Source: Ferroglobus placidus DSM 10642 (GTDB lineage: Archaea > Halobacteriota > Archaeoglobi > Archaeoglobales > Archaeoglobaceae). Taken from it: a stretch of 32,000 bases of DNA. Below the pieces are notes generated by a model, which was not told the origin of the DNA, made no database searches, and saw only the letters and a list, made by a program, of their open reading frames with translations. This document shows positions 3,961 through 25,206 of the stretch, piece after piece. The position numbers were made by a program, and so were the translations under genes. The stretch spans positions 570,001 to 602,000 of the forward strand of contig NC_013849.1 of NCBI RefSeq assembly GCF_000025505.1. Reading direction: 5' to 3'. Position 1 is the stretch's first letter; each line of letters starts with the position of its first letter.

Positions 3961-4707
3961 ATGAGTGTGAGCGGAAGAGTATTACTCGGGATCGTAATAC
4001 TTTTAGCTGTAGGAGTTCTTGTGTTGCCATCGACTGTATCGCTTTTCGCAGGACAGCACGACTGGTACAACATCGACAATCCGGAGAACGACATTCCGTG
4101 CCAGAAGTGTCATGCGGACGTGTTTGATGAGTTAAGTAATAGCCCGTATCACATCAACTTCAGCGGTGGGACTGCTAATCAGGCAGATGAGGCTGATTGC
4201 GGAGCATGCCATCAAGCAGCAGCTGTAGTTGGAGGTGGACTCACCCTCGCAAACGGTAGCGGCGCCTTTGGCTCACCTGGTAAAGAAGCTCATGCGGCTG
4301 CAAGCATAAGCTGTATGTGGTGCCATGGATATCCCGGTAACTTTACAGCCCCTACAGCTGGAGGTTTCGGTATCTCTGGAGACCCCGCAGATACTGGTGC
4401 CTATGCAGCCCACAGACCGTGGGTTCTTTCAGCGATGGCTGACAATCCAGCTAACAACACCGATTTGCTCACAGGACCAAACGAAGCTTGCATAGGCTGT
4501 CACACCCACGTTGCTGTGAGGATTAACTGGACTCATGCTGTAAGCCTTGAATTCAACGCCACCAACACTGGCACTGGCTGGACCACGGAGAACTACAACG
4601 CTAATGGAACAGCTGTAAGGATTGTCTGGGGTAATGCGGAGGGAACTGGTGGATTGCTGTACAACGGAACAACAACAAAGAGCTGGGGAACTGGAACTTG
4701 GCCTTAA
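3961..4707 (+). CDS. Tetrahaem c-type cytochrome with an N-terminal signal or anchor segment (small-cytochrome paralogue 1)
   Basis: Four CXXCH motifs: CQKCH, CGACH, CMWCH, CIGCH. The N-terminus is MSVSGRVLLGIVILLAVGVLVLPSTVSLFAGQHDWY. Conserved extra histidines (GQH, YH, EAHAA, AAHR, HTHV..WTH) would allow bis-His ligation. The C-terminus is WGNAEGTGGLLYNGTTTKSWGTGTWP. Confidence 0.93.
   Translation: MSVSGRVLLGIVILLAVGVLVLPSTVSLFAGQHDWYNIDNPENDIPCQKCHADVFDELSNSPYHINFSGGTANQADEADCGACHQAAAVVGGGLTLANGSGAFGSPGKEAHAAASISCMWCHGYPGNFTAPTAGGFGISGDPADTGAYAAHRPWVLSAMADNPANNTDLLTGPNEACIGCHTHVAVRINWTHAVSLEFNATNTGTGWTTENYNANGTAVRIVWGNAEGTGGLLYNGTTTKSWGTGTWP
3994..4077 (+). repeat. 84-bp block identical to 4841-4924 (signal/anchor region of paralogues 1 and 2)
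   Basis: Aligned by eye at a constant offset of 847 nt, I saw no mismatch. Confidence 0.8.
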
Positions 4708-4708
4708 A
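4588..4708 (+). repeat. ~121-bp block identical to 5447-5567 (C-terminal 39 codons plus stop of paralogues 1 and 2)
   Basis: Aligned by eye at a constant offset of 859 nt, I saw no mismatch. Similarity ends immediately after the stop codon. Confidence 0.8.
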
Positions 4709-4735
4709 TCATATAGCTTGAACGTTGCTTTATAA

Positions 4736-4742: not shown

Positions 4743-4807
4743 AAACAGCTTAACAAAAACAAAAATTTTTAATTTTGTTTGCATAACATTACTTTGGGGT
4801 GAATAAT

Positions 4808-5566
4808 ATGATGTTAACACCGCGTGTTATCCTTTCTATTGTAATACTTTTAGCTGTAGGAGTTCTTGTGTTGCCATCGACTGTATCGCTTTTCGCAGGA
4901 CAGCACGACTGGTACAACATCGACGCGCGGGGAAACGATATTCCTTGTGAGAAATGCCATGCGGACGTTTACGATGAGCTGAAGAACAATCCGTATCATG
5001 AGAACTTTACATGCGATTTATGTCACAGAGCAATCAACATTTCCTATGCAAGCGGATATAGCAATGGACCGGATATGAGCTATGAGTGGGGTGCTCATGC
5101 GGCATCTACTGTTAGCTGTCTGGTGTGTCATAGTGGACCAAACTCTGGCGAAGGTGCTATGCATGAACATCATGAAGTAGTTGCAGACTGTTCGGTTTGT
5201 CATTCACCAAGTCCTACTGACTATCCTCCAGTGGCAGGGGGATTTGGTTTGACTGGCGAAGCTAATGACACAGGAACTTACGCAGCACACAGGCAGTTCG
5301 TTTTAGATGCTAAAAACAACTCTCTCATGACCTCTGCAAATGAAGCTTGTATAGCCTGCCACACCCATGTTCCAGTAAGAATCAATTGGAGTCATGCTGT
5401 GAGCTTAGAGCTTAACGCCACTCAGATACTCAGCGAATGGACAACCGAGAACTACAACGCTAATGGAACAGCTGTAAGGATTGTCTGGGGTAATGCGGAG
5501 GGAACTGGTGGATTGCTGTACAACGGAACAACAACAAAGAGCTGGGGAACTGGAACTTGGCCTTAA
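4808..5566 (+). CDS. Pentahaem c-type cytochrome with an N-terminal signal or anchor segment (paralogue 2)
   Basis: Five CXXCH motifs: CEKCH, CDLCH, CLVCH, CSVCH, CIACH. The track starts at GTG 4799. I prefer ATG 4808 because GGGGTG lies 5 nt upstream, the same spacing as at 3961 and 12111. The N- and C-terminal coding DNA is identical to paralogue 1. Confidence 0.9.
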   Translation: MMLTPRVILSIVILLAVGVLVLPSTVSLFAGQHDWYNIDARGNDIPCEKCHADVYDELKNNPYHENFTCDLCHRAINISYASGYSNGPDMSYEWGAHAASTVSCLVCHSGPNSGEGAMHEHHEVVADCSVCHSPSPTDYPPVAGGFGLTGEANDTGTYAAHRQFVLDAKNNSLMTSANEACIACHTHVPVRINWSHAVSLELNATQILSEWTTENYNANGTAVRIVWGNAEGTGGLLYNGTTTKSWGTGTWP

Positions 5567-5616
5567 ACCTTCCATAATTTTATAATTATGATGACAATGA
5601 GATTTATTGCATTTAT

Positions 5617-5633: not shown

Positions 5634-5657
5634 TCTAATTGTGAGCACTTATTTTTA

Positions 5658-8600
5658 ATGAACGTGGGAAGAATTTTACTGTTGCTAACATTCGTAGCAG
5701 TTCTTGCAGCGGTTTCAGCAGCACAAGAGTACGATGGAAGCGTGGCTAAAGTTGTTATACTGAAAAACGGAGTTCCGGAGCTCTACTTTTCGAAAGGAGA
5801 CAAGGTCGAGTTCAGAGTTTACAGCTACGTGGGAGATCAGAAAGATCTCAAGCTGAAACTGTACAACTACAAGGGCGATAGATTCAAAGAAATGAGATTC
5901 TCAAAGAAAGGTGACTACTACGTCGCTTACTGGACAGCAGACAGGGAGGGATGGATTTACTACGTGATAACTTCGAGGGACAAAATCAGGAACATCTGGG
6001 GCTACATTGTTGTTGGGAACAATGATATCGGAAGCATAAAGCTTTACAAAGACGGAGTGGAGAGCGAAAGCTTCGTTCAGGGAGATTACGTTTACGTCAA
6101 AATAAAGACCACCGACAAAGACAAAGTTCGTAGAGTTCTCATAAGCAACTGGGCGGGAGATGTAAGGAGTCTGGATGGAGATGAGGTAGAGATTATTTCT
6201 TCGACCGAAAACGAGCTTTACTTCAGATTCTACCTTGGCAACTATCTAACCGAGCACCTCTATCCTGACAAGTGGGCTTCACTCAGAGTCGAAACGGACA
6301 GAGGAATAAAAGCTTCCACACCGTTCTTCTTCGGAGAAGCCGCTCCAACTCCCACTCCGACACCTACCCCTACACCGACACCCACTCCTACTCCAACGCC
6401 TACTCCCACACCGACTCCTACTCCAACGGCACAGGGAGAAGTTTTGAAACTCTCTTTCGACAGGCTTGCTGTTCTTGACGATCCGAATTCTGGCAGTGCA
6501 GCTTCGGGATTTCAGAACCCGCCTAAAAGCTGGGGCTCGGACTGGTGGTACGGGAGAGCGACAACAATTACAGCATACGCACTTGTAATGAACGGAACTC
6601 CAGTAGCAAATGCACAGGTGACGTTTAAGCTGATAGCACCTGACGGAAGCGTGAAAAAGCAGGTAACTGCATATACCGACTCAAGCGGATTGGCAAAAGC
6701 GAGTTTCGATCTAAACAATGCGAATTTCTACGGCTACTGGAAAATCGTAGCTGAAAGCGGAGCTTTAAGTGCAGAGCAAACCTTCGTTTACAACTGGTGG
6801 GGATGTGCGTGGTGTCATGGAAACGAGAAGCTGACAGACCACGGCACCTACACGCCGAAATCACCATTCGTAATGGGCTACGACTTTCACAGGAATCCGA
6901 AGAAGGGTGAGCATGTTGATCCTATAGTGGACGGCAGGTGCACGGTATGCCACCAGAGCTACGATGCAATTCCCCACGACAGCTACGCTATGCAAGGCAA
7001 AGATGCAATTAAGAACGCTCCTCCTGCCGATCAGTATCCGGCTGGTATTCACAAGGATAAGGTTCAGTGCGAAGACTGCCATGAGCAATCAACTGTTAGA
7101 TATGCCCGTCCGGAAGTTCCAGGCTGTTACGACACGTGCCATCCACTAAAGAATTTCAACCTCACGGCAATTTTCACAACCACCGGCTACTCGGTTGGAG
7201 GCTCTTACAGATCCTTCTACGCCTACGATGTTAACACGGGAGAACCTGCTAAGGCTCACACATCTCAGAAAACCGTGCCCTGCTTGAGCTGCCACAACGC
7301 AGCTCATAACAACACCAAACCTTACGTCGGAGCAGACAACAGCTACACCGAAAACGAGCAGTGCCTGAGCTGTCACGGCTACAAGCACGGAACAAGTGTA
7401 ACGAACTGTGTCGGCTGCCACGGACAGGATGCTCACCTCGTCAAAGCACCGAAGGCAGGAAACTGTATAGAGTGCCACAAAGTTGGAGGCTTCGCACCTA
7501 ACGTTGACGTTGAGGCTTTCAACATCAGCGTTCACGCAAACCTGAATGCCAATGCAGCATCTTCATCAGGCTATCCTTCGGTGGTCGGAGCATGCTGGGC
7601 GTGTCATTATAACGGAACCGAACCTCAGTCGCACGACACGGCAGCGTTTAGAAATCCGAAGAAGTGCGAAGATTGCCACCTCTCAGGAAATTACGGAGCT
7701 CCAGTTGTAGAGGAACACATCAGGTTCGGAAGGGACATAACTGTCAACACATACTGCACGGACTGTCACAGCCTTGGTGAGATGCTGAACGCCTTTAAAG
7801 ATCCAGAAGTAACCAAGAACTCTACGGTCTCCCACTATGCCAGAAAGAGGATAGATTTGAGGACGTGGGATTCGGGAATTTCAGATAACTGTTCTTACTG
7901 TCATCAGAACACGACAACAGTATTCAGTATTGTAATGAGTGATGTCTGGAGCAAAAACGTTCCGCCTCACGCGACAAACTATCCGTCTCCATCGTGCACG
8001 AACTCCACATGTCACAACTCTGGACTGATACACAGCTCAAGCTTGACGAAACCGACACTCACTGACACATACTGTCAGAACTGTCACAGCAAGCAGTTCC
8101 ACAATAATGCCATTGACTGCAGCACCTGCCACCTCGAAAATGGAATGCCGAAAAACATCCACGGAATCAAGTACCTGACTTCTTCCGGAACATTTACATC
8201 GAATCCATCGGATGCTGTGGATTGCACCTCCTGCCATCAACCCGGAAGCTCGACATCTGGAATTCTGAACGCTCCTGTCATTCCAGATCCGCTAAAGCAC
8301 TCCTCAGACAGCAGCGGTCAGAAGTGGGGCAGTTACTGGATGACAGAACTTGAATCCTGCTACTACTGTCACGGTGATACGAAACACGAAGCAAAGGCTC
8401 TTGGAAACGTTTCAAACCTGACTCTCGATCCAGCGAATGTGATGAACTCGTCAAGCCTTACGACAAGGTGGTGTTACGGCTGCCATGTTGCGGGCTATCA
8501 GTATTACATGGGAACGTCATTGAACCCGCAACCTCCTGCAATCGACGTTAACAATCTCGGAAGCGCCAACTGGCTGAACCATTCAAGCTTCGTATCGGCT

Positions 8601-10856
8601 GACAGCACGGATCAAATCTGCATCGCCTGTCACAGCCTTAACGGTAGTTACGCATTAACAACTGCTAACTACGCTCACAGCCTCGATCCGGGAACTTCTG
8701 GCGGACCTGACTGTGTTGCCTGCCACGACATCGGTGGCTTCGCACCTAACGTTGATGTCATGGCTATGAAATCCGGAACTCATGCTAATCTGAACAGCGG
8801 TGCGTACAATGCAACCAAGCTGACAGACGAAATTGACAAAGCTTGCTGGGCATGCCATGGGGATGGAAGCGAGCCCGAGAAGCATCCGACCAGTTACAAG
8901 AATCCAAAGCAGTGCGAAGACTGTCATCTCAGCGGAGCATTCAATGCTCCAGTTGTAGCTAACCACTTCTCCAACGGAGCGAGCATAAAGGTGAATTCAA
9001 CATGCGTTGATTGCCACAGCAAGAACGAAATGCTTACCGCATACAGCGACTCTTCTGTAACAGTCATGTCAGCAGTTAGCCACTACGGCAAGAAGAGAGC
9101 AGACTTACTAACGCCTTCTCAGTACGACACTTACGACGTTAAATGCTCCTACTGCCACCAGAACACAACGACAGCATTCGCAGATGTCATGAAGAGCAGC
9201 TTCAGCTATAACGTGCCGGATCACTCAGATTCTCCGAACTCGCCGAGCTGTGTAGGATTGTGCCACGGATACGGAAGAATGCACGATGAAACGCTCAGCA
9301 AGAAGTCTCTGACAACTTCCAGGATGTGTCTCGACTGCCATTCTGCGGGAGGAAAGTTCAAGCACAACGGAACTGTTGACTGCTTCGTCTGCCACATGGA
9401 TCCCTCAGATTCGATAGGCAAGGCTCAAATACACGGAATTAAGTATCTCCAGAAAGACGGAAGCTTTGTAATGTATCAGCCAGCAAATGCGGTTGATTGC
9501 TACACATGCCATGCAACCGCCAACGTATCGCAAGTGCTGACATCTTATGGCTTAACAGCTCCTCAGATTACATGGTTGGGACACTCAACCGGGCAGAAGT
9601 GGGGAGTGTACTGGACAACAGATAACCAAGCCTGCGAATACTGTCATGGTGATACCAAGCACAACACAACTGCGCTTGGTAGAATCTCTCTCATAGCAGA
9701 CACATCAACGCTCGACAGCTTGGTATGCGCAGCTTGTCATGCAACAGACTCAGCCAACTACGCCGGAGATAAATGGTCTCCAACACCGCCAAGCATTGTC
9801 GGAACGGCTATAAATGAAGAATGGGTCAGCCACGACTTCCTCGGAGGAGATTACAGAGCCTCGAACTGTGCTGCATGCCACAATCCGGATGCTGCAGACG
9901 TTACCCAGCTTGCACACGACGTTAAAGCTGCAGCTGGAGGCTGTATTCAGTGTCATGCCAACCAGAGCGTTGCTTATGTTAACGTGAATGCAATGGGAAG
10001 ACACGCCAACGTTGACGGAGATGCAAATCTTACTGACAAAGACTGCACAACCTGCCATTTCGACATAAGCGGCAAATTCTCCGCTAACTACAAACCGATT
10101 GCCGGAGTTAACGTTTACAGCTGCGAAGACTGCCACGTTAACGGTAATCCGGTTAGCGTTCCGGCAGATGTGCAGATTTCGTCCTTCCAGCACGGTCTAA
10201 ACGACTGCAAGTCATGCCACATCGTCAGTTACGGATATCACTACGCTTCTCCGCTCGGTGATGTAGCAGCACTTCCAAGCTTCAGCTCGGATTATAGAAC
10301 GAATGAAGCAACGAGGGTTAACCTGTGCAACGACTGCCACCACAGAATGAACGCTGACGATGAGCCGTTCCACGCTCCCGGAATAACTCCAGCAATGGCG
10401 GGTTACTCCTCATGCGGCAGTGGAGGGTGGTGTCATGGTGGAAGCAGAGAAACGACGGATCCGCACTACGTTAAGCAGATATATCAATCGCCGTGGTTCT
10501 CATACTCGCTGAACATGCCCGATAACGTGTCCGGAAAGTTCAATGCATCTCTAAAGATATGGACAAACAACATACAGATGCACTACGGATATTACGAGGT
10601 GATTGACAGCTTCGGCAATGTAATCCTTAGAGCGAATCTCACTCCAGATGATGGAGAATGGGGACAGAGTTACGCAAACTGGGGAAGAGACAGCATTGAA
10701 AGCTTCACGATTTCAATCGATCCGTCTGGCTGGATGCCCGGCAACTACACCGTAAAGTTCTACGTGATGAGGGACGCTCCGAAAGTCGATCCGTCGAAGC
10801 CGTACTACATGAACGGCTACATACTGACTGTGAGCAAGCAGTTTGCAGTTCAGTAA
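5658..10856 (+). CDS. Giant secreted multihaem c-type cytochrome: 33 CXXCH plus 4 spacing variants, up to 37 haems
   Basis: The signal peptide is MNVGRILLLLTFVAVLAAVSA/AQE. Next come two Ig-like beta domains, a (PT)14 linker, and a Big/MG-like domain. The haem region starts at WWGCAWCH. I counted 33 CXXCH motifs plus CYDTCH, CTNSTCH, CVGLCH and CGSGGWCH. A C-terminal Ig-like domain follows. There are no Cys residues outside haem motifs. There is no TM or C-terminal anchor. Confidence 0.95.
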   Translation: MNVGRILLLLTFVAVLAAVSAAQEYDGSVAKVVILKNGVPELYFSKGDKVEFRVYSYVGDQKDLKLKLYNYKGDRFKEMRFSKKGDYYVAYWTADREGWIYYVITSRDKIRNIWGYIVVGNNDIGSIKLYKDGVESESFVQGDYVYVKIKTTDKDKVRRVLISNWAGDVRSLDGDEVEIISSTENELYFRFYLGNYLTEHLYPDKWASLRVETDRGIKASTPFFFGEAAPTPTPTPTPTPTPTPTPTPTPTPTPTPTAQGEVLKLSFDRLAVLDDPNSGSAASGFQNPPKSWGSDWWYGRATTITAYALVMNGTPVANAQVTFKLIAPDGSVKKQVTAYTDSSGLAKASFDLNNANFYGYWKIVAESGALSAEQTFVYNWWGCAWCHGNEKLTDHGTYTPKSPFVMGYDFHRNPKKGEHVDPIVDGRCTVCHQSYDAIPHDSYAMQGKDAIKNAPPADQYPAGIHKDKVQCEDCHEQSTVRYARPEVPGCYDTCHPLKNFNLTAIFTTTGYSVGGSYRSFYAYDVNTGEPAKAHTSQKTVPCLSCHNAAHNNTKPYVGADNSYTENEQCLSCHGYKHGTSVTNCVGCHGQDAHLVKAPKAGNCIECHKVGGFAPNVDVEAFNISVHANLNANAASSSGYPSVVGACWACHYNGTEPQSHDTAAFRNPKKCEDCHLSGNYGAPVVEEHIRFGRDITVNTYCTDCHSLGEMLNAFKDPEVTKNSTVSHYARKRIDLRTWDSGISDNCSYCHQNTTTVFSIVMSDVWSKNVPPHATNYPSPSCTNSTCHNSGLIHSSSLTKPTLTDTYCQNCHSKQFHNNAIDCSTCHLENGMPKNIHGIKYLTSSGTFTSNPSDAVDCTSCHQPGSSTSGILNAPVIPDPLKHSSDSSGQKWGSYWMTELESCYYCHGDTKHEAKALGNVSNLTLDPANVMNSSSLTTRWCYGCHVAGYQYYMGTSLNPQPPAIDVNNLGSANWLNHSSFVSADSTDQICIACHSLNGSYALTTANYAHSLDPGTSGGPDCVACHDIGGFAPNVDVMAMKSGTHANLNSGAYNATKLTDEIDKACWACHGDGSEPEKHPTSYKNPKQCEDCHLSGAFNAPVVANHFSNGASIKVNSTCVDCHSKNEMLTAYSDSSVTVMSAVSHYGKKRADLLTPSQYDTYDVKCSYCHQNTTTAFADVMKSSFSYNVPDHSDSPNSPSCVGLCHGYGRMHDETLSKKSLTTSRMCLDCHSAGGKFKHNGTVDCFVCHMDPSDSIGKAQIHGIKYLQKDGSFVMYQPANAVDCYTCHATANVSQVLTSYGLTAPQITWLGHSTGQKWGVYWTTDNQACEYCHGDTKHNTTALGRISLIADTSTLDSLVCAACHATDSANYAGDKWSPTPPSIVGTAINEEWVSHDFLGGDYRASNCAACHNPDAADVTQLAHDVKAAAGGCIQCHANQSVAYVNVNAMGRHANVDGDANLTDKDCTTCHFDISGKFSANYKPIAGVNVYSCEDCHVNGNPVSVPADVQISSFQHGLNDCKSCHIVSYGYHYASPLGDVAALPSFSSDYRTNEATRVNLCNDCHHRMNADDEPFHAPGITPAMAGYSSCGSGGWCHGGSRETTDPHYVKQIYQSPWFSYSLNMPDNVSGKFNASLKIWTNNIQMHYGYYEVIDSFGNVILRANLTPDDGEWGQSYANWGRDSIESFTISIDPSGWMPGNYTVKFYVMRDAPKVDPSKPYYMNGYILTVSKQFAVQ
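6345..6428 (+). repeat. (Pro-Thr)14 linker coding repeat
   Basis: It encodes PTPTPT...PT using mixed synonymous codons (CCA/CCG/CCT/CCC, ACT/ACA/ACC/ACG), so it is not a pure microsatellite. Confidence 0.9.
6774..7376 (+). repeat. ~603-bp block near-identical to 12543-13145 in giant cytochrome 2
   Basis: The offset is constant at 5769 nt with no indels. By eye I saw roughly 15 mismatches, almost all synonymous and clustered between ~6948 and ~7135. The last ~230 bp has one mismatch, giving F to L. The block covers haem motifs 1-5 plus CYDTCH. Confidence 0.85.
7458..8705 (+). repeat. Haem module copy A (~416 aa, 10 CXXCH plus 1 CX4CH)
   Basis: It runs from GNCIECHKVGGFAPNVDVEAF to QICIACHSLNG. 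It aligns position by position with copy B: CWACH, NPKxCEDCHLSG, CxDCH, SHYxxKRxDL, CSYCHQNTTT, IHGIKYL, GQKWGxYW, CxYCHGDTKH. Confidence 0.85.
8706..9941 (+). repeat. Haem module copy B (tandem duplicate of 7458-8705, diverged)
   Basis: It runs from PDCVACHDIGGFAPNVDVMAM to SNCAACHNPD. The first Cys codons of the two copies (7464 and 8712) are exactly 1248 nt apart. A third, truncated and degenerate start (GGCIQCHANQSVAYVNVNAMGRHAN) begins at ~9942. Confidence 0.85.
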
Positions 10857-10878: not shown

Positions 10879-12003
10879 TTATTTTAAAATTTTTCTCAAC
10901 ATTGCGGCTGAAGTAATTGAGAGGATTAATACTTCCACTCCAAGTGGGCTTTCTTTTGAAGTCTTTTCGTCGTTCCAGTATTTTACGGAAAAAGTCTCGG
11001 CTGGTATTTCGCTTTTGTTTACTATAGCCAGCCATATACTCCTGTTCTCCCTGAATATGGCTGACTGGTAAGCTACGATAACTCTGTCTTTTTCTATCAG
11101 AACGCTTTTTTGGTCGCATTTGAAGTTGAAAGGCTCTTCGAGCTGAGAAATGTACTCCACATTTCTCGACAGCTTTACAGGCTTGGTCCAGTTCACACCA
11201 TCTCTGCTGCTGATAAGATATACTTCCTCGTTGCCCTCCACTGTTGACGTGTAGGCAATCCAGATTCTCTCATCATCCGCCTTGGCATCGTTGTAGAGTG
11301 TGAAGTTTAGGGGAGGCGTGGAGGTTATTCTCGCGTGATTTTTCAGCTCGTAAGGTGAATCGCCATAGGCAATGAATATGTCGTGGTTGTTGAGGAGAGT
11401 CAGATTATCTTTGTCTCCTGTAAACTTCGCGTAGTTCATCCACCATTTTCCTTTGAATTCAAACAACTTTCCGAAAATGTATTCACCGTCTGGCGGAATT
11501 ACCACTTTCGCTTCGCTCCACGTTATGAAATCACGGCTTTCTCTTACGTAAATCCCGGTGCTTCCGTTCTCTTCAGCTACGCTGTACGTCAGCCAGAACT
11601 TTCCGCTTTTATCCTGATAAAGGTGTGGATACCAGTCTATCTTTTCGCTTTCCGCAACCGGATAAGGTTCGACCCAGTTCACACCATCGTAGCTGTAGGT
11701 CGCGTATATGTCGTAGTCGAATCCGTATTTTATCGACTCCGGATTTATTATCTCGTGCTTAACGTAAACGACTCTGAAAACTCCGTTTCTGTCGATGATA
11801 AACCACGGATGATAATCTCCCTGCTTCGTTCCGGGTATTTTCACAGGAGCGCTCCAGCTTTTTAAATCCTTCGAGCTTGTTATGTATATTCCGTCGTCGC
11901 CCTTGAAGACCATCCAGTAAGTGTCGTTAAATTTTTCCAGAACCGGATAACCTCCGTTGAACAGGTATATCAGCGTAACCAGAACAGCAGCAGTCTTCAG
12001 CAT
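10879..12003 (-). CDS. Secreted BNR/Asp-box repeat beta-propeller protein (sialidase-fold-like) with a C-terminal hydrophobic tail
   Basis: The N-terminal signal is MLKTAAVLVTLIYLFNGG. There are four Asp-box-like motifs: SSKDLKSWS, SYDGVNWV, SRDFITWS, SSRDGVNWT. The C-terminus is PLGVEVLILSITSAAMLRKILK. Confidence 0.75.
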   Translation of the reverse strand: MLKTAAVLVTLIYLFNGGYPVLEKFNDTYWMVFKGDDGIYITSSKDLKSWSAPVKIPGTKQGDYHPWFIIDRNGVFRVVYVKHEIINPESIKYGFDYDIYATYSYDGVNWVEPYPVAESEKIDWYPHLYQDKSGKFWLTYSVAEENGSTGIYVRESRDFITWSEAKVVIPPDGEYIFGKLFEFKGKWWMNYAKFTGDKDNLTLLNNHDIFIAYGDSPYELKNHARITSTPPLNFTLYNDAKADDERIWIAYTSTVEGNEEVYLISSRDGVNWTKPVKLSRNVEYISQLEEPFNFKCDQKSVLIEKDRVIVAYQSAIFRENRSIWLAIVNKSEIPAETFSVKYWNDEKTSKESPLGVEVLILSITSAAMLRKILK

Positions 12004-12098: not shown

Positions 12099-12110
12099 GG
12101 GGTGAATCCA

Positions 12111-17787: not shown

Positions 17788-18404
17788 AAAAGTTCTTACT
17801 GCTTTTGATGATAGCTGTAGCCTCTTTCAGCATAGTCAAAACGACCTCCCTATTCGTTGGGCAGCACTTCTTCTATGACATCTCCTCCGGCTACAACGAG
17901 AAATGTTTGAAATGTCATGCTGATATTTACGATGAAATGCTCTTCACACCCCATCATCGCTTAGTTGATGGAGAGGCGGGATTGAGCGGAAAGGAATGCT
18001 ACGTCTGCCACAGAAGCGAGGATGTTCAGTACGGCAACGCTTCAACCCCAGGAAAAGAGGCTCATTCAGCGAGCATCATGTACTGCGGAAACTGCCACCT
18101 CAATGCAACGATAGCGGCAAAGTACAACGCTCCTCTCGCTGACGACATATACAACACAAAAGAGGTCCACAAGCTGCTTGCCTTTCACGCCTCTTTGGAT
18201 TACTCTACAACGGGAAGCGATTTGCTGAGAAAAGAAAGCGAAGCCTGCGTAGCGTGTCACGCTGATGTTAGAGTAAACATTACGTTCGTGAGCGACAACG
18301 AGACGACCATTACCGTCAGCAACCTTGACAGGGGCGGTTATTCGGCTTACTCAGTGGATAATGTTGTTATATCCGAATTCAAGCAGTGGAGCGTGGAAAA
18401 ATGA
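17778..18404 (+). CDS. Tetrahaem c-type cytochrome with an N-terminal signal or anchor segment (paralogue 4; lacks the TWP tail)
   Basis: CLKCH, CYVCH, CGNCH, CVACH. The N-terminus is MALKKFLLLLMIAVASFSIVKTTSLFVGQHFFY. The start overlaps the previous gene by 10 nt. Confidence 0.9.
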   Translation: MALKKFLLLLMIAVASFSIVKTTSLFVGQHFFYDISSGYNEKCLKCHADIYDEMLFTPHHRLVDGEAGLSGKECYVCHRSEDVQYGNASTPGKEAHSASIMYCGNCHLNATIAAKYNAPLADDIYNTKEVHKLLAFHASLDYSTTGSDLLRKESEACVACHADVRVNITFVSDNETTITVSNLDRGGYSAYSVDNVVISEFKQWSVEK

Positions 18405-19555
18405 GGATGCACTTGCTTTTAATAGGCTTAATCGTATTTGCCGTAGCTCTAATCTACTCCACTCCATCGGTCTCAGTTCTGTACGGCAGCCACAAGCTTT
18501 ACAACTTAACAGGAGCTGGAAACGATGTCGATTGCGTTTCGTGCCATCCTCAGGCTGCCGACGAACTTTCTCAATCTGCTTACCACAAAACTCTAACCTG
18601 CGAGGACTGTCATCGAAATCCCTACATGAAGAGCGTCGCTTTCGACAACGGCAGCGTTGTGACCAAAGGTAGCTACGCACACGCAGCCTACAAGCCGAGG
18701 TGTCTGGACTGTCATTCGCAGACGAGCATAACGAAAGCTGACGGAACTGTCGTTTCAGTGAGAAAAGCCGACGCTTTCGGAGATCCCGGTTATGGGAGCG
18801 ATTATTCTGCCCATAAAAAGTTCGTGGAGGGGTCGCTGAACTACAACATCTTTGAGGGAGAGAACGAAGCGTGCATCTCATGTCATACGGATTACAAAAT
18901 CAGGTTCGAATTTATAAGACCGCTGTACGTTGAATACACGATTCAAAAAGATGCTAACGGAAACTGGTATGTTGATAGCAGCTCGATAACCTACGGAGCT
19001 GACAACACAACTCTAATTCTCAAACCGGGAAGCGGAAAGAAACATCTCTTTATTCCGCTCAACCAGATCAAATGCGAAAACTGCCATTCAGACATATGGG
19101 CAACTGTTCAAACGGGATACAACCATATAACCACCGGATGGAAAAATCCTCCGATCCACGACTACACGAGAGTTGGAACTTCTTACTCAAACGTAACAGA
19201 ATACTGCCAGCTTTCATGCCACAATCCGATTGTTTCAGGTTCTCCTCCGGCTGCTTTGAGCGAGACAGTGCATGCTGCAAGGAGATTGTCCTGCTATGAT
19301 TGCCACAACACTGCCGGGAATAATGGAGTATTTACCGTTTATTCAAAACCCGGCAATATTTATAGAAATCCACCTTGGAGCGACAGAGCTATGGGCAACT
19401 TCGACGATTACGCAATAAACGCTCCTCTTTTCATTCAGGGAAACACATGCGTTGACTGTAAGGAGGTTAGACAATCTACTGGAACATGGTATACGCCACC
19501 GGTAACCTTCAAGTCCTATTTCGAGCCAACTACAGTCCCACCAAGCAAGATATGA
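18401..19555 (+). CDS. Hexa- to octa-haem c-type cytochrome with an N-terminal signal or anchor segment (paralogue 5, extended)
   Basis: CVSCH, CEDCH, CLDCH, CISCH, CENCH and CYDCH, plus CQLSCH (CX3CH) and CVDCK (CXXCK). The track starts at GTG 18386. I prefer ATG 18401, which forms an ATGA overlap with the upstream stop (MRMHLLLIGLIVFAVALIYSTPSVSVLYGSHKLY). Confidence 0.9.
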   Translation: MRMHLLLIGLIVFAVALIYSTPSVSVLYGSHKLYNLTGAGNDVDCVSCHPQAADELSQSAYHKTLTCEDCHRNPYMKSVAFDNGSVVTKGSYAHAAYKPRCLDCHSQTSITKADGTVVSVRKADAFGDPGYGSDYSAHKKFVEGSLNYNIFEGENEACISCHTDYKIRFEFIRPLYVEYTIQKDANGNWYVDSSSITYGADNTTLILKPGSGKKHLFIPLNQIKCENCHSDIWATVQTGYNHITTGWKNPPIHDYTRVGTSYSNVTEYCQLSCHNPIVSGSPPAALSETVHAARRLSCYDCHNTAGNNGVFTVYSKPGNIYRNPPWSDRAMGNFDDYAINAPLFIQGNTCVDCKEVRQSTGTWYTPPVTFKSYFEPTTVPPSKI

Positions 19556-19611: not shown

Positions 19612-22600
19612 ATGAGGCTGAAAGCAATCGCCTTGGCAATAATAATTTTCTTCTCACTTGCTTATCTGACAGAAGCGAAAGGTGTTCCGTCGAAAGTGAT
19701 CGTGTGGACTGATAAGAAGTTGTATCATCCGTGGTATATCTATTCCGATAGAGGAATGAAGACAGGGAATGTTGATTATGCCACGATGAAAGTTTACGTT
19801 GCAGTCTTAGATGACGATGGAAACTTCATGTCTGGCAGAAATGTTAGGGTGTACATAGTGGATGAATACAGATATGACCACTACGATAAAGGAGATTCGT
19901 CTTATCATCACAATAATCAATCTACGGGTGGCTTATTTATTAATACATTTATATCTCTATCTGATTCAGATGGGGACGGTGTTTATGAGGGCACAGTCAG
20001 CTTAGATAGTTATTTAGATAACGATTATTCTAACTTAAAGGACGATCACCTAAGGATAAAAGTTGTGGCTGAAGATGTGGATTCTGGTTTAATCGGTTTA
20101 ACATACATACTTGCATCGCCTTTAAGCTGTATATGTCATAAGGATTATTCGGACAAATACGATCCCACAAATAAAGAACCGACGAAAGACCTGGCCCATG
20201 GAGATCATGTGAATGAACAACAAGATAAACCCTCTGATATATGTACGGTTTGTCATTATGGCTATGAGCACTTCTACGAAAACATTACTGATACGATTCC
20301 AGATGGTTACAAGGATGTGCACTTTTATAAACAGAATCCACCTGATGTGACCTACTCTGTTAAGGGAGGTGAGTTTGCAAATTATGATTGGAACTCAACT
20401 TGGATTAATACTTCACTGAACTCCTTCTCGTGGGCGGAAAAAAGCGGAGGTGGAGCACCATACTGTGCCAACTGCCACATTAACTCATCAACCGGGCAGG
20501 TTTACGATTGGGACTCAAGCAGCGAAATAGTTCAGTGCACGAACTGCCACAGCGAAACAGGGATGGAAAATACAGTTCCACCTTCAGCTTACAACTCTTA
20601 TGGCACGGCTGGTAAAGGCGACGTTTCCCACTACAACTCTTCGAGAAGCGGAGCGTTAGGAAGGGGTGTTGCCTGCGGCGTCTGTCACAATTCGGTTCAC
20701 AGCCTGCAACTTCCCAACGAGAGCTATAAAGAATACTACATAGCCGAGCAGTGCTGGAGCTGTCATAATGTGAGTGGTGGCATTGATCTTGATTCTTCTG
20801 ACTCAATTCCTAACAGTGTTTCCACCCATCCTGAGGTGACAAATGATTGCAGAGCTTGCCATCTCGATAATAACCTTGCTTTAGATTCTCATTCCGTTCC
20901 AGTAGCCGAACCTCCATCTCCGAACTGCGTTAAGTGCCACGACATTGGAGGAAAATCCCTCGTGCATGTTGACGTTTCAGCCATGAACACCACAGAGAAC
21001 AGACACTACAACCTGAACAACAGAACTGATCCGACTGCCAACGGCTTGAGGTGGGAAAACAGACTTTGCTGGGCGTGTCACGGAGAAGACGACAACGGAG
21101 ATGGAGTGATAGAGTATTCCGAGCAGCCCCCCGATCAGCATCCCGCTAAATACAGAAATCCGAGGATGTGCACTGACTGCCACAAAAACGCTACTTACGG
21201 AAGCTTAATCGGAGCCCCTCAGGTTTCGAGGCACACTTGGTACGATAGCGTAATAAATACTCCCGCTGTAACTTACTGTGGTGACTGTCACGGATTGCCG
21301 GAAAACGTTCTGCCAAATGCGGATGAAGAATTTACGTACGAAAGCGCTGCAGCCCACTATGGAAGATACAGATACGATCTGATAAATCTCTTAGAAACCG
21401 ATCCTGACGCATTCTGCAACTACTGTCACCAGAACGAAACATCTCCTTATCCCTTCGCGAATCCAGAGAACAAAATAAGACCCGAGCATTCGAACACCGG
21501 CACGCCTCCGGAGTGCGTTGAGTGTCACGGTCTGGGCAACATACACAGCACAAATCTTACCATTCCTTCTGTAAACGACCAGCTCTGCCAGAAGTGCCAT
21601 CCCGATAAGCAACCACACAACGGAACGATAGGTTGCGTCGAATGTCACATGAACAACACTCCAAGCTACATCCACCCGATGACGTTTTTGCAGCCTGACG
21701 GCAGCGTTTCCACGTCGAAGCTAACTGCCGTAAGTTGCTACGACTGCCACAAGTCTAACAAGCTCGACAACCTGCTGATAAGCTGGGGAGCAACGAGGTT
21801 GCCAAAAGTTAAGAATCAGCACCACAGCGAGTCTCCCATAAACGGCTCGAAGTGGAACGACTACTGGAGCTACCAGCCGAGGTATCTTACGTTCGCATCC
21901 TCCTACAGCGTCTCAGAAGGCTACGTTCAGGATTTCAGCAACATGATGAGCGTGAGCAACAACTTCTCCATTATTTACGAAGCTCCGAAGGGCGGAATCG
22001 CGGCTTTCAAGGGAACGTTTCCGTCTAATCAGGGATTCGACTCGAACTATGATGGATGGAGCTACAGTGCTGAATCTCCCGCAACAGCCGGATACGATCC
22101 ATCTTACGGAAATCCAGCCGGCTCGATCTACTCCTACATCTACACAAGGCTGAGAACAACGAGCTATTACTCGACCGAATGGGTTTCTGCATTCGTTTAC
22201 GAGAAGAACAAACCGGTAGCCTACGCCAAGTTCAGCTTCGATTACAGAGTAACGGCAACCACAAGGCTGAATGAAATTAAAATCACAGCATACATCGAGG
22301 ATCCTGATGGAATAAGGTATCAGGTTTATCAGGTTTCCAAAACCTCTCCGGATGTGACCTGGAATAAAGTGGAAGTTGAGATGTCTAACCCCGATTCCGT
22401 CTTCTCAAAAAGCGGAGTTTACAAGATCATTCTGAAGACGGAGTTCGGATTGACCACATACAAGGGAAGCAAGGAAGGCAAGGTTTACTTTGACAACGTG
22501 AAGCTTGAAATTAACGAAGAGGAGTATCAGCAGTACGAAGTCGTCGTGCAATTTGAAAACGTCCCTAACACTCAGTACACCCTCAACCTCGAGGGAGAGT

Positions 22601-25206
22601 ATCTCGTTAGTAAGGAGCCGGCTGTTCTCTACATCTACGATTATTCTTCAAATTCCTGGGGAAGAAGTTTCGAGTTAAACGCCACAGCCTGGAAGAAGTT
22701 CAGAATTCAGCTGAATCCAAACGAGTATCAGGGTGGTGTAGTCAAGATAAAAATTGACGACAAAAACAAGGGAATTGACACGATTCAGGATTACGTGAAA
22801 TTCAAATATCTGCTTGTTCAAAGCGACACCGGCAAACCCTATCCGTGCGAGCAGTGTCACGCCTCAGAAAAACACGAAAATCCAGCTCTTGGAAGCATAA
22901 TAGCGATTATGGGTAGCAACAAGATAAACACGACCGATCTGAACAACTCTTACTGGTGCATCCAGTGCCACTGGAAGAATGCTGCAAACTACACCGAGAT
23001 GATAAATGAATACAACTTAACGAGGGGATTACCGGTTCCGCCCGAAATAACCAACGGAACTTACGCCTATCCGGTGGCGAGGGACGGGACTAAGCATGTG
23101 GATCACACAGACTGGATCAATCAGTACGGCTACTCAGACAGAGCGTGTGCTTTATGCCACGCAACCTACTTCGTTGACGGGGTTACGACGACTACTGAAA
23201 TCATCCACGACACTGAGGTTGGAACGAACTGGACGAGAGACTACCTCTTCGCTGAGTGCATAAACTGCCATTCAACCGACGTCAACACTTCCAACTTCGG
23301 CAGACACGTAAACCTTGAGAGTGACGGAGGATTAACCTACAAGGATTGTATTAAATGCCATTACAAGCTGGGAGGGATGGGATATAACTACACCGCTACG
23401 GTGGGACTGAATCTGTACGATTGCAGGAGCTGCCACACGCCAGAGGGAGAGTCCAATTTAAAACCTGCCGATTCAAATCTCATAATTGTCAACTTCTCTC
23501 ACGGAACCAATCTCTGCTCCAATTGCCACTATCCGAAGGGAGACTACCACAACGATTATTCCGATCCTCTCGGCACTGTCGAAGCTCCCGGGTGGAGCGG
23601 ATGGGTTAACGGCACTCCTGTAAGCTGTAACGACTGTCACTTTGAGAGAAACCTTGATGACGAGCCATTCCATGCCCCGGGAATAAGCAGGTTTAAAGCT
23701 TCTTACAGCTCCTGTTCCGGTTCAAACTGCCACGGAGACGGTAGGATACATAGCGTAAAGCCAAGAGATCTGGATGTTGAGCCATTCGTAAGCGTAAGCC
23801 TGAACAGAACGTGGATAAATCCGGGAGAATCCATACTTGTTACAGCAAAGGTAAGTGGTAAGGGGTCACAGATCAGCTACGCCTATTATGAGCTGTTGGA
23901 CATGGACGGCAAGGTAATCTCTTCAGCAGATCTCTATCCAAAAGACGGTGAGTGGGGTGGCGTTGATAGTACTATTTTAGGAAACGGTTACGAGGAGTTT
24001 GAGTTCGTGATAAATGGCTCGGTAACTTCTGCACTTAAAGCCGGAATTTACAAAGTTAGAGTTACTGCAATGCAGGACGCTCCTAAGAGCAGAGAAGGAA
24101 GTTACTACCCAAGAAACGGAGCTTACGGAAGTGGTTACGCTGAATTCAGCGTCGGAGAGGCTGGAAGCCTTGCCACAAACTTCGACTTTGAGGCTTTAAA
24201 CGTTTCCGGGTGGTTCGTTAACTGGAAGAAAGTAATTGTTTCAGGAAACCCCGTTATTGAGAGCAGTGATGCGGTATATCACTCTTACAACCACTCCCTT
24301 CACATATCCTCTTCAGCGGGAGATGACTGCTATGTTCAGTCGATAAACGTGAGCGTGACTGAAGGAGAGAAATACTTACTTCTCGTGTGGGTTAAAGGAA
24401 GTGCCGATTTTGCCGGGATAAGCATTAATCAGTGGAATTCATCAAACCTTGTCTCTTCAACCGATCCTGTAGGTATAATCGGCTCCACAAGCGACTGGAC
24501 TCAGTTCGGAATAATCTTCGATGCATTAGGAGATTTGATAAACGTTCAGCTGCACGTTAAAGGAAACGCTGACATCTATTTCGACGACGTCAAGTTATTG
24601 AGAATGCCTTCATACAAAGTGGTCGGACCAGTAAACGGAGATTTCGAATATAATGAGGATGATCTTACCCTGAAAAACGCTGAGGAGTGGCAACAGTATT
24701 ATGGATACGTTAACGGAAAAGATCCGGCTGTAAAAGCCTGGGAGCCTTACACGAGTGATGCGGGAATAAATGTGAGCAAAGTATATTCCGGAGTTCAGGC
24801 TGTCGAGATCGACGGAACAGGCTTCTGGGTTTCACCGGGAGGTTACGACAGGATGCAGGATGACAGCAGTGGAGTTTGGTTTAACGCTTCGAAGTATTAC
24901 GTTGACAAATACGGCATCTTCGTGGATAAACCGTACTACCTCGTCTCGTTTGCGATGTTCGCAGATAGAATTAATGACTACGCAGGAATGAACATTACGT
25001 TCTGGGTATACGATAAAAGCAATGGTGATTACTTCCAGATTTCTGATCTCGGCTTCGTTGTCGGAACGAGGGAAAACATGTCCGACTACGTTGTCGGAGT
25101 TGTCAATGTCACCATACCCTTCATCTCCAACCTGATGGAGATAAGGCTTGAAGCATCTAACAGCCACGTGGTGTTCGACGATGTCAGGATTTATGAAGTT
25201 CAGTAA
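19612..25206 (+). CDS. Giant secreted multihaem c-type cytochrome (23 CXXCH plus 1 CX4CH) with an internal jelly-roll insertion and a C-terminal Ig-like domain plus two CBM4_9-like domains
   Basis: The signal is MRLKAIALAIIIFFSLAYLTEA/KG. An N-terminal Ig-like domain follows, then 15 CXXCH motifs and a ~326-aa Cys-free insert (21868-22845). After the insert come 8 CXXCH motifs plus CSGSNCH and an Ig-like domain. The two C-terminal domains end in YFDDVKLL and VFDDVRIY. Confidence 0.95.
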   Translation: MRLKAIALAIIIFFSLAYLTEAKGVPSKVIVWTDKKLYHPWYIYSDRGMKTGNVDYATMKVYVAVLDDDGNFMSGRNVRVYIVDEYRYDHYDKGDSSYHHNNQSTGGLFINTFISLSDSDGDGVYEGTVSLDSYLDNDYSNLKDDHLRIKVVAEDVDSGLIGLTYILASPLSCICHKDYSDKYDPTNKEPTKDLAHGDHVNEQQDKPSDICTVCHYGYEHFYENITDTIPDGYKDVHFYKQNPPDVTYSVKGGEFANYDWNSTWINTSLNSFSWAEKSGGGAPYCANCHINSSTGQVYDWDSSSEIVQCTNCHSETGMENTVPPSAYNSYGTAGKGDVSHYNSSRSGALGRGVACGVCHNSVHSLQLPNESYKEYYIAEQCWSCHNVSGGIDLDSSDSIPNSVSTHPEVTNDCRACHLDNNLALDSHSVPVAEPPSPNCVKCHDIGGKSLVHVDVSAMNTTENRHYNLNNRTDPTANGLRWENRLCWACHGEDDNGDGVIEYSEQPPDQHPAKYRNPRMCTDCHKNATYGSLIGAPQVSRHTWYDSVINTPAVTYCGDCHGLPENVLPNADEEFTYESAAAHYGRYRYDLINLLETDPDAFCNYCHQNETSPYPFANPENKIRPEHSNTGTPPECVECHGLGNIHSTNLTIPSVNDQLCQKCHPDKQPHNGTIGCVECHMNNTPSYIHPMTFLQPDGSVSTSKLTAVSCYDCHKSNKLDNLLISWGATRLPKVKNQHHSESPINGSKWNDYWSYQPRYLTFASSYSVSEGYVQDFSNMMSVSNNFSIIYEAPKGGIAAFKGTFPSNQGFDSNYDGWSYSAESPATAGYDPSYGNPAGSIYSYIYTRLRTTSYYSTEWVSAFVYEKNKPVAYAKFSFDYRVTATTRLNEIKITAYIEDPDGIRYQVYQVSKTSPDVTWNKVEVEMSNPDSVFSKSGVYKIILKTEFGLTTYKGSKEGKVYFDNVKLEINEEEYQQYEVVVQFENVPNTQYTLNLEGEYLVSKEPAVLYIYDYSSNSWGRSFELNATAWKKFRIQLNPNEYQGGVVKIKIDDKNKGIDTIQDYVKFKYLLVQSDTGKPYPCEQCHASEKHENPALGSIIAIMGSNKINTTDLNNSYWCIQCHWKNAANYTEMINEYNLTRGLPVPPEITNGTYAYPVARDGTKHVDHTDWINQYGYSDRACALCHATYFVDGVTTTTEIIHDTEVGTNWTRDYLFAECINCHSTDVNTSNFGRHVNLESDGGLTYKDCIKCHYKLGGMGYNYTATVGLNLYDCRSCHTPEGESNLKPADSNLIIVNFSHGTNLCSNCHYPKGDYHNDYSDPLGTVEAPGWSGWVNGTPVSCNDCHFERNLDDEPFHAPGISRFKASYSSCSGSNCHGDGRIHSVKPRDLDVEPFVSVSLNRTWINPGESILVTAKVSGKGSQISYAYYELLDMDGKVISSADLYPKDGEWGGVDSTILGNGYEEFEFVINGSVTSALKAGIYKVRVTAMQDAPKSREGSYYPRNGAYGSGYAEFSVGEAGSLATNFDFEALNVSGWFVNWKKVIVSGNPVIESSDAVYHSYNHSLHISSSAGDDCYVQSINVSVTEGEKYLLLVWVKGSADFAGISINQWNSSNLVSSTDPVGIIGSTSDWTQFGIIFDALGDLINVQLHVKGNADIYFDDVKLLRMPSYKVVGPVNGDFEYNEDDLTLKNAEEWQQYYGYVNGKDPAVKAWEPYTSDAGINVSKVYSGVQAVEIDGTGFWVSPGGYDRMQDDSSGVWFNASKYYVDKYGIFVDKPYYLVSFAMFADRINDYAGMNITFWVYDKSNGDYFQISDLGFVVGTRENMSDYVVGVVNVTIPFISNLMEIRLEASNSHVVFDDVRIYEVQ

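Follow-up and report, generated by a model that had tools for sequence, protein, structure and literature searches.

A multihaem cytochrome island of Ferroglobus placidus encoding candidate nanowire-type subunits, giant secreted cytochromes and a conserved accessory module

Ferroglobus placidus is an archaeon that requires direct contact for Fe(III) oxide reduction, and a 32,000-nucleotide stretch of strain DSM 10642 (contig NC_013849.1, positions 570,001 to 602,000; hereafter the window) encodes an unusually dense island of c-type cytochromes. Three of its open reading frames (ORFs) are 100% identical to database proteins, namely those at 3961-4707 (Ferp_0668), 12102-17030 (Ferp_0672) and, on the minus strand, 1843-2619 (Ferp_0665); by numbering, the cytochromes together with an intervening BNR-like ORF correspond to Ferp_0668-0676. 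Eight plus-strand genes encode the cytochromes – five small paralogues, here termed s1 to s5, and three giants, G1 to G3. The small proteins are related to AvECN (F2KMU8, PDB 8E5G), which is said to be the extracellular cytochrome nanowire subunit of Archaeoglobus veneficus described by Baquero et al. in 2023. To our knowledge, A. veneficus is not recognized as a respirer of Fe(III). The cytochrome genes are arranged as follows.

3961-4707, plus strand: s1 (Ferp_0668), a tetrahaem AvECN-family cytochrome and candidate major nanowire subunit
4799-5566, plus strand: s2 (Ferp_0669), a pentahaem AvECN-family paralogue with a fifth CXXCH inserted
5658-10856, plus strand: G1 (Ferp_0670 by numbering), 1732 amino acids, 33 CXXCH and 3 variants, with an immunoglobulin (Ig)-like (MG2/Big_1) N-terminal region
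12102-17030, plus strand: G2 (Ferp_0672), 29 CXXCH and 2 variants, with a 449-residue haem-free C-terminus
17059-17787, plus strand: s3 (Ferp_0673 by numbering), a tetrahaem AvECN-family paralogue
17778-18404, plus strand: s4 (Ferp_0674 by numbering), a short tetrahaem AvECN-family paralogue without the C-terminal tail
18386-19555, plus strand: s5 (Ferp_0675 by numbering), with an AvECN-like N-terminal domain and an NrfB-like multihaem C-terminal domain
19612-25206, plus strand: G3 (Ferp_0676 by numbering), 1864 amino acids, 23 CXXCH and 1 variant in two haem blocks

A first-pass annotation of this DNA had described eight co-oriented cytochrome genes with 108 canonical CXXCH motifs and eight variants, and every count is reproduced here: the genes contain 4, 5, 33, 29, 4, 4, 6 and 23 CXXCH motifs in order, and the variants comprise four CX3CH, three CX4CH and one CXXCK. 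Because there is no CXXCH in any of the 14 further translated ORFs of the window, this density is far above chance. Outside the haem motifs, the giants have 2, 1 and 3 cysteines and the small cytochromes have none. According to a Kyte-Doolittle scan, each of the eight proteins has a single hydrophobic segment, at its N-terminus, and no internal or C-terminal transmembrane (TM) segment, in agreement with the earlier description of a single such segment per small paralogue and of giants with few stray cysteines and neither a TM nor a C-terminal anchor. The window was also said to lack cytochrome c maturation (Ccm) genes, and a Pfam scan of its ORFs likewise finds none; the F. placidus CcmF and CcmH genes are placed elsewhere, at Ferp_1362 and Ferp_1364 (PMC4600277). 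The cytochrome genes have a strong positive AT skew.

The five small cytochromes form one family with pairwise identities of 25-57% (57% between s1 and s2, 43% between s1 and s3). Searched against all PDB sequences, each matches a sole entry, chain A of 8E5G: s1 with E=2.8e-48 over residues 5-238, s2 with E=2.2e-41, s3 with E=3.6e-33, s4 with E=5.5e-20 in its N-terminal half, and s5 with E=2.9e-15 over residues 8-191, its N-terminal domain. The homology to AvECN is therefore full-length for s1-s3 and N-terminal or domain-level for s4 and s5. Judged by eye from the printed alignment, identity between s1 and AvECN is about 50% over the whole chain, including both termini and all His ligands, and the two share four CXXCH motifs, four distal histidines, an N-terminal hydrophobic segment and the motif LPST.SLF.GQH. 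The F. placidus system – known here from its genes alone – differs in that five paralogues with 4, 5, 4, 4 and 8 haem sites are interleaved with three giants and a putative propeller protein.

An alignment of 19 family members shows four invariant haem sites (C47/C50/H51, C80/C83/H84, C118/C121/H122 and C177/C180/H181) and invariant H33, H111 and H151, with H61 nearly so by eye. Four CXXCH motifs and these four histidines are therefore enough for four bis-His haems. The haems of AvECN are bis-His ligated, and its filament requires axial histidines from neighbouring subunits. The eight sites of s5 are six CXXCH, one CX3CH and one CXXCK, and its residues 230-313 match the Cytochrom_c_NrfB-like family just above threshold (27.3 bits; cut-off 27). 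PF22113 is likewise marginally above its cut-off of 30 bits in s1 (31.2), s2 (31.6) and s5 (33.5). The true start of s2 is probably at 4808, because the database protein has 252 amino acids.

This family is small: a search of 1.84 billion proteins recovers 314 representatives at E<=1e-10, of which 123 are at E<=1e-30. Its members are distributed in Archaeoglobaceae, ANME-1/Methanophagales (ANME, anaerobic methanotrophic archaea), Syntrophoarchaeum, Methanoperedens and related metagenome-assembled genomes (MAGs). The paralogues are not recent duplicates: distinct best-hit classes recur in distant lineages, namely s1/s2-like, s3/s4-like (about 215-235 amino acids) and s5-like (360-520 amino acids, 8-11 haems). 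The s4 gene overlaps s3 by 10 nucleotides and s5 by 19, and equivalent s4/s5 pairs, usually overlapping as here, are present at eight of the loci surveyed below (L002, L005, L033, L056, L062, L066, L069 and L077). We infer from these patterns that s1 and s2 would be major subunits, and s4 and s5 minor subunits or adaptors. The s1 and s2 genes are 83-84% identical in DNA sequence at both ends (3991-4160 with 4838-5007, and 4450-4708 with 5309-5567); the two proteins agree exactly over their last ~43 residues, but their central parts have diverged and a fifth CXXCH has arisen in s2. Either constraint or gene conversion could have kept the termini alike, and these may form subunit interfaces.

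The family resemblance does not by itself imply polymerization, and the small cytochromes might instead be exported and processed yet act as monomeric or loosely associated carriers, between membrane and surface layer (S-layer) or in a matrix, with only some members such as AvECN polymerizing. An intermediate role of this kind is given to small ANME multihaem cytochromes (MHCs) by Chadwick et al. 2022 (PMC9012536), and it would suit five divergent paralogues of differing haem number, one of them (s4) lacking the C-terminal tail, in an organism with no reported filament. We nonetheless think this rather unlikely, since the match of s1 to AvECN extends to the inter-subunit His ligands, and the tandem arrays and conserved subtypes resemble systems of major and minor subunits.

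The first-pass annotation had suggested a different role, in which the small paralogues link membrane quinol oxidation to the giants. They would then stay anchored by an uncleaved helix, in the manner of CymA or NapC, and pass menaquinol electrons to the secreted giants. Each has a single N-terminal hydrophobic segment of ~20 residues, there are faint matches to Cytochrom_NNT and NrfH, and the Geoglobus ahangari genome paper counts the orthologues as membrane-associated with one TM segment. When the profiles of the NapC/NirT/NrfH families are applied, however, none of the five reaches a cut-off (17-26 bits against cut-offs of 24-134): with Pfam Cytochrom_NNT s1 scores 17.4 and s5 23.3 bits (cut-off 24.1), and with NCBIfam NrfH they score 18.5 and 25.9 bits (cut-off 134.2). 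We accordingly rejected membership of the NapC/NirT/NrfH/CymA group, and the quinol-link proposal loses its basis in family relationship. The proteins moreover match a solved extracellular filament subunit and no other PDB entry, the helix precedes a motif of signal-peptidase type, a peptidase gene shows synteny with the small family, and relatives hold a separate cytochrome b and MHC module suited to quinol oxidation. We consider an anchored relay very improbable.

That separate module is seen in several Archaeoglobaceae MAGs (L066 14396-18013, L069 16042-19575 and L077 14709-18250; genes assigned by Pfam in L069). At a distance of a few kb from the s4/s5-like pair, these loci encode a cytochrome b561 (Ni_hydr_CYTB), a homologue of CcmF, and a cytochrome that has nine haems and TM segments. 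It is plausible that the 9-haem cytochrome and cytochrome b561 form a quinol:cytochrome c oxidoreductase and that the CcmF homologue is a dedicated haem lyase. Because Archaeoglobaceae loci pair s4/s5-like genes with a b561 module, the quinol link can come from other proteins.

The N-terminus of the small family looks like a signal peptide, and we read it as one because a family-wide motif, LPSTVSLFxGQH, comes after the hydrophobic stretch. Among 125 unique family sequences the motif is L-P-S-T-V-S-L-F-[A/S/G]-G-Q-H-x-W-Y-[N/D]-[L/I], with G and H invariant. Small residues satisfy the -3/-1 rule at two candidate sites, one following TVS and the other following LF[A/S/G]; the former suits every one of the five window paralogues, and s3-s5 fit TVS|LF only. 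The 8E5G structure models 220 residues of a 262-residue deposited sequence, which is consistent with loss of a leader but is no proof of it. The giants, unlike the small family with its own conserved motif, carry ordinary A-x-A-like signal peptides.

Conserved genes on either side of the cytochromes (at 1-2619 and 25244-26811) show that the system is wider than the interval 3961-25206 first assigned to it, extending over about 1-26811. The non-cytochrome features of this region are:

1-944, plus strand: the C-terminal ~314 amino acids of a ~610-residue CARDB/Ig-like surface protein, its gene cut by the 5' end of the window
941-1188, plus strand: the counterpart of an 87-residue Geoglobus ORF, split by a frameshift into 941-1039 and 1024-1188
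1176-1853, plus strand: Ferp_0664 (by numbering), an archaeal-type signal peptidase I (S26) bearing additional TM segments at both its N- and C-terminus
1843-2619, minus strand: Ferp_0665, a polytopic membrane protein with five hydrophobic stretches
2707-3885: a mobile-element remnant, with an IS5-like transposase ORF (2707-3675, minus strand) and a 52-residue DUF2080 'transposon-encoded' ORF (3727-3885, plus strand)
10879-12003, minus strand: Ferp_0671 (by numbering), a putative BNR-like Asp-box beta-propeller with an N-terminal signal-like segment
25244-25678, plus strand: a small secreted or lipoprotein-like protein with an N-terminal hydrophobic segment, co-occurring with the accessory module
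25651-26811, plus strand: a PKD-domain surface protein (PKD_4, 82.2 bits) with hydrophobic segments at 1-30 and 364-386

Ferp_0664 is identified as a signal peptidase by a TIGR02228 score of 66.6 bits (cut-off 51.85), the catalytic motifs SNSMYPT, THR and GGDAS, and S84, H123, R124 and D138 invariant across nine syntenic homologues. It is a candidate dedicated processing enzyme for the small cytochromes, a role that the synteny suggests. A parallel is found in the TapA-SipW-TasA system of Bacillus subtilis, in which a dedicated archaeal/ER-type S26 peptidase is encoded among the genes for an extracellular fibre subunit. Both have an S26 peptidase gene among those of secreted subunits, and Ferp_0664 has a weak match to the SipW model NF046067 (32.3 bits), although this is far below the equivalog cut-off of 190; the substrates here would be cytochromes rather than TasA-fold proteins, and Ferp_0664 differs further in its additional TM segments and a conserved C-terminal extension.

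Ferp_0665 matches no Pfam or NCBIfam family, and its family alignment contains a conserved motif, WW(L/I)(F/L)I(S/T)xE(F/Y). Chadwick et al. 2022 (PMC9012536) reported a conserved signal peptidase and an '8x TMH' protein found only in ANME, Syntrophoarchaeum, Argoarchaeum, Geoglobus and Ferroglobus, for which a maturation role was proposed, and in ANME-1 a single gene separates the two (BSM_13360 and BSM_13380), a spacing that agrees with the loci found here. Ferp_0664 and Ferp_0665 are probably this pair; the assignment of Ferp_0665 to '8x TMH' is drawn from distribution and gene order, the supplements of that paper giving Ferp tags for neither gene.

The rest of the upstream module is conserved with Geoglobus. 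The truncated surface protein has weak CARDB and Filamin matches and a C-terminal hydrophobic segment (254-280) forming a TM anchor; it is 56% identical to residues 292-612 of the Geoglobus acetivorans CARDB protein, its frame is free of stop codons across 3-146, and its homologues adjoin the peptidase or Ferp_0665-like genes in L002, L079, L101 and L102. The Geoglobus 87-residue proteins match 1006-1188 in the other frame (tblastn), and their N-terminus, MT(L/A)SDYEILV, matches the ORF at 941-1039; either a frameshift or a sequencing error could account for the split. The orthologous Geoglobus clusters (GACE_1846/1847 and GAH_00504-00511; 62-69% identity) share the order CARDB protein, 87-residue ORF, S26 peptidase, membrane protein and small cytochromes, and in both complete Geoglobus genomes these four accessory genes are right beside the small cytochromes. 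The order in G. acetivorans continues giant, BNR, giant, with two giants in the part of the locus retrieved. F. placidus differs from Geoglobus in its frameshifted 87-residue ORF and in the insertion-sequence remnant between the membrane protein and s1, which is absent there in G. acetivorans and G. ahangari. The remnant (transpos_IS5_2 45.8 bits, below cut-off; DUF2080 63.8 bits, cut-off 21.5) interrupts the locus and is no functional part of it. The G+C content is ~39% over the accessory and mobile-element region (1-4000) and 44-50% over the cytochrome genes (4000-25000).

The small-family profile, run against reference genomes, yielded 78 loci, the source genome of F. placidus not being among them. 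At least two family members lie within 10 kb in 50 of these, a peptidase homologue is present in eight, and five of the eight also contain Ferp_0665 homologues; the usual order is subunit, peptidase, s4-like tetrahaem, s5-like 8-11-haem and membrane protein. The peptidase-bearing loci are from ANME-1, Syntrophoarchaeum, Methanoperedens and Archaeoglobus MAGs. Genes of the s5 type (8-11 haems) occur in 16 of the 78 loci, and a peptidase is near 6/16 of them compared with 2/62 loci that have no s5-like gene (Fisher p=7e-4), an association that is strong but not universal. The synteny comparison that the first-pass annotation had called for places the module with the small family in Geoglobus, ANME-1, Syntrophoarchaeum and Methanoperedens. 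Giants occur together with the small family in few genomes.

A reciprocal metagenome scan seeded with Ferp_0665 yielded 22 loci; in 14 of them the immediate neighbour encodes a multihaem cytochrome, and the others are mostly contigs of 1-3 kb. One candidate homologue (L002:9170-9931) was rejected, as it does not align with the family and has an unrelated GPGDPELLT-type N-terminal motif. At eight loci (L082, L084, L087, L089, L090, L096, L098 and L100) a tetrahaem cytochrome of ~180-200 amino acids is directly downstream of the Ferp_0665-like gene; it is not matched by the AvECN-family profile, and is often followed by a CARDB-like gene, similar to that at 1-944, and a 5-haem cytochrome.

These distributions bear on whether the peptidase and Ferp_0665 serve the small cytochromes in particular. 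They may instead be general maturation or haem-handling factors for all large MHCs, an alternative that we consider unlikely: in ANME-2/3 the pair adjoins ANME MHC-B and a CcmF paralogue (PMC9012536), Ferp_0665 has its conserved Trp-Trp motif, and the pair is also near giants in the window. On the other hand, loci of G. ahangari, ANME-1 and Syntrophoarchaeum have the module with AvECN-like and s5-like genes and no giant, and it is the small family, not the giants with their AxA-type signal peptides, that has a unique motif at the predicted processing site.

The giants contain 36 (G1), 31 (G2) and 24 (G3) haem sites, each behind an N-terminal signal-like segment, at about one haem per 34 amino acids in G1 and G2. 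With signal peptides and no C-terminal hydrophobic segment, they are, as first proposed, secreted and anchor-less. They are mutually homologous (G1/G2 41% identity over 982 amino acids; G3/G2 31% over 798 including the C-terminus) and contain MtrC/MtrF-type and c7-type haem modules; in G1, PF22113 scores 130.9 bits in four stretches and Cytochrome_C7 117.9 bits. BLAST self-comparison finds no recent internal repeats at E<=1e-3, and neither the giants nor the BNR-like ORF have meaningful sequence relatives among solved structures. The true start of G2 is probably at 12111, because the database protein has 1639 amino acids. In G3, a 370-residue haem-free insert parts the two haem blocks, the C-terminus is CBM-like (carbohydrate-binding module, CBM), and a C-x-C pair (C173 and C175; residues 173-175, window 20128-20136) lies outside the haem motifs, upstream of the first CXXCH.

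The jelly rolls resembling CBMs that had been noted in the giants are borne out for G2. Its C-terminus is modelled by AlphaFold2 as tandem beta-sandwiches (mean confidence, pLDDT, 76.5), for which Foldseek returns the CBM22 tandem 4xup (E=7e-10), the porphyran-binding CBM 8xmz (TM-score 0.76 normalised to the target, root-mean-square deviation 3.6), and other matches to CBM61, CBM22, CBM4 and surface glycan-binding proteins. On this model the region consists of tandem CBM-like beta-sandwich domains. For G3 the corresponding match, CBM_4_9 at residues 1519-1647, is sub-threshold (22.7 bits; cut-off 25.9).

Homologues of the giants are 62% identical in G. acetivorans, ~40% in Archaeoglobi MAGs, and 26-32% in Methanoperedens, ANME-2 and Methanocellales, some of the latter with S-layer domains. 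The ANME-2/3 and Methanoperedens giants (types A, B and C) resemble those of F. placidus in a haem-rich core of 26-32% identity, tens of haems, signal peptides and CX3-4CH variants, and are proposed to carry electrons across or beyond the S-layer in cells without an outer membrane (PMC9012536). Types A and B, however, have PF07752 and a C-terminal TM helix, whereas the Ferroglobus giants have neither, Pfam finding no PF07752/DUF1608 match in G1-G3. The pectin-lyase domain of type C is also undetected by Pfam in the Ferroglobus giants, which have Ig-like N-termini and CBM-like C-termini instead.

Bacterial systems offer partial parallels. Like MtrCAB/OmcA of Shewanella, the giants have MtrC/MtrF domain II/IV-type haem modules (PF22113), and both are proposed to be surface terminal metal-oxide reductases. 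They differ in their archaeal envelope, in being 3-4 times larger, in lacking a haematite-binding motif, and in having neither a porin nor an MtrA-like partner; a Pfam scan of the window ORFs reveals no beta-barrel porin or periplasmic decahaem partner. In Geobacter, OmcS and OmcE are likewise small multihaem subunits that form an insulated haem wire, and the OmcE gene clusters contain additional multihaem cytochromes together with beta-propeller proteins, the latter paralleling the BNR-like ORF here. There is no detectable sequence relationship to OmcS or OmcE, whose bacterial systems include a beta-barrel in the outer membrane, and the genes described for OmcE clusters do not include a dedicated signal peptidase.

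The remaining genes of the island encode surface proteins. Ferp_0671, first called a BNR propeller, has four S-x-D-x-x-x-W Asp-boxes, though its BNR_2 score is just under cut-off (30.3 against 31.4 bits). A 49%-identical homologue adjoins a 31-haem giant in L001, and a 376-residue homologue is between the two G. acetivorans giants. The product of 25244-25678 has a lipobox-like LSFGC after its hydrophobic N-terminus; a homologue with 44% identity is between the CARDB and PKD/peptidase genes in L002, and a weaker one adjoins cytochromes in the Methanoperedens locus L065. The PKD protein has a signal peptide and a C-terminal TM anchor, and ends in a TM segment and basic tail resembling a sorting or anchor signal; homologues adjoin cytochrome or peptidase genes in L001 and L002, in the latter between the CARDB and peptidase genes. 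A minus-strand ORF some 3 kb away (29530-30231), with a signal-like N-terminus, a sub-threshold CarboxypepD_reg-like domain and a C-terminal DUF7343/MarR-type winged helix may encode a membrane-tethered regulator.

Several of these genes have been noted before. Ferp_0670 and Ferp_0672 are implicated as important in Fe(III) oxide respiration by Smith et al. 2015, as cited in a 2026 paper (PMC13104607). FeGenie includes the Geoglobus orthologues GACE_1846 (4 haems) and GACE_1847 (22 haems) among its iron reductases (PMC8446621), and the Methanoperedens cytochromes with the highest expression have Ferp_0668, 0669, 0670, 0672 and 0676 as their nearest homologues (Arshad et al. 2015, PMC4683180). 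Comparably large archaeal cytochromes are reported only in ANME, Geoglobus and Ferroglobus (Chadwick et al. 2022, PMC9012536). The proposal that this is a candidate extracellular electron-transfer (EET) apparatus of an archaeon without a porin is supported by the literature on Ferp_0670 and Ferp_0672 and by the FeGenie entries. The accompanying statement that no characterized system was known overlooks AvECN (2023), the publications on giant MHCs of ANME, Geoglobus and Ferroglobus (PMC9012536), and Smith 2015, which deals with these genes themselves.

With moderate confidence – and drawing on homologies, motifs, topology, synteny and domain folds – we interpret Ferp_0663-0678 as a surface electron-transfer island of three layers: AvECN-type wire paralogues, secreted giants, and accessory proteins. 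In this interpretation, s1-s5 would be exported by the Sec system, matured by Ccm proteins encoded elsewhere, and cleaved after the hydrophobic N-terminus at LPSTVS|LF(A)|GQH, most likely by Ferp_0664. Proteins of the s1/s2 type would polymerize in F. placidus to form an insulated wire of bis-His haems, comparable to the A. veneficus filament, with a division of labour in which the overlapping s4-s5 pair would provide minor subunits, and the NrfB-like haem domain of s5 would couple the wire to other cytochromes. The three anchor-less giants, with 24-36 haem sites, would act as surface electron conduits or terminal Fe(III) oxide reductases, held by their CBM-like and Ig-like domains on glycans of the S-layer, the filament or a mineral surface. 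Ferp_0665, the proteins with CARDB and PKD domains and the putative Asp-box propeller would be accessory surface or membrane proteins. Menaquinol electrons would leave through a complex encoded elsewhere, the quinol-oxidizing step not being part of the island. Giants that pass electrons to Fe(III) oxide at the surface would fit the direct-contact requirement.

A number of observations weigh against this interpretation. The leader cleavage site is a prediction with two possible positions, and no filament has been reported for F. placidus. The AlphaFold2 model of s1, built without haems, has a pLDDT of 56 and is too poor for fold comparison; Foldseek returns 8e5g as its sole significant match (E=9e-9), with a TM-score of only 0.27-0.30. 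Chadwick et al. 2022 assign the peptidase and the '8x TMH' protein, encoded beside ANME MHC-B/CcmF2, a general part in MHC maturation and not a nanowire-specific one (PMC9012536), and a peptidase is within 10 kb in only the 6/16 s5-containing loci. No window cytochrome contains [ST][hydrophobic][ST]P[ST], the motif for haematite binding that has been described in GACE_1847. An MHC with at least 10 haems is nearby in only 7/78 loci, and G. ahangari has the small family and accessory module but no giants at all. The giants are thus an optional layer and, because they accompany the small family in few genomes, any giant-filament contact is speculative.

The direction of electron flow could also differ. 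F. placidus oxidizes Fe(II) with nitrate at neutral pH – the phenotype of its first isolation – and haem wires are bidirectional in principle, so the island might mainly draw electrons from Fe(II) when this is oxidized with nitrate. Geoglobus species, which reduce Fe(III) and make no use of nitrate, nevertheless carry the same island, and Ferp_0670 and Ferp_0672 are tied to Fe(III) reduction (PMC13104607). We assign electron uptake as the main function a low probability, and it is compatible with the three-layer organization.

A bolder version of the three-layer interpretation is more doubtful, and we raise it tentatively. The island and its flanks might constitute a complete nanowire parts list, in which Ferp_0664 and Ferp_0665 would process and launch the subunits, s4-s5 would nucleate, anchor or cap an s1/s2 filament, and the giants would dock by their CBM domains on the glycosylated filament or S-layer as its mineral-contacting ends. 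If true, this would amount to a dedicated cytochrome-filament assembly pathway, common to unculturable ANME archaea. We know of no organism in which a dedicated assembly pathway for cytochrome filaments has been defined.

The locus and its general EET role are already published, and each component is of a known kind. The link of the peptidase and membrane-protein pair to AvECN-type subunits, together with the conserved leader motif, appears to be new; no joint mention of AvECN and a signal peptidase was found in the literature searched, a search that did not include Baquero 2023. What is added here is the re-annotation of the small paralogues as nanowire-type, the wider boundaries (about 1-26811) and a testable model of assembly.

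Archaeal EET underlies hyperthermophilic iron respiration and, in ANME and Methanoperedens relatives, anaerobic methane oxidation, and in no organism have the processing, assembly, anchoring and coupling of cytochrome nanowires been worked out. The F. placidus locus unites nanowire-type subunits, a probable processing peptidase, a membrane protein restricted to archaea capable of EET, and giant surface cytochromes linked to the reduction of Fe(III) oxide. Because F. placidus is culturable, it offers a practical place for assembly hypotheses that are beyond reach in uncultured ANME.

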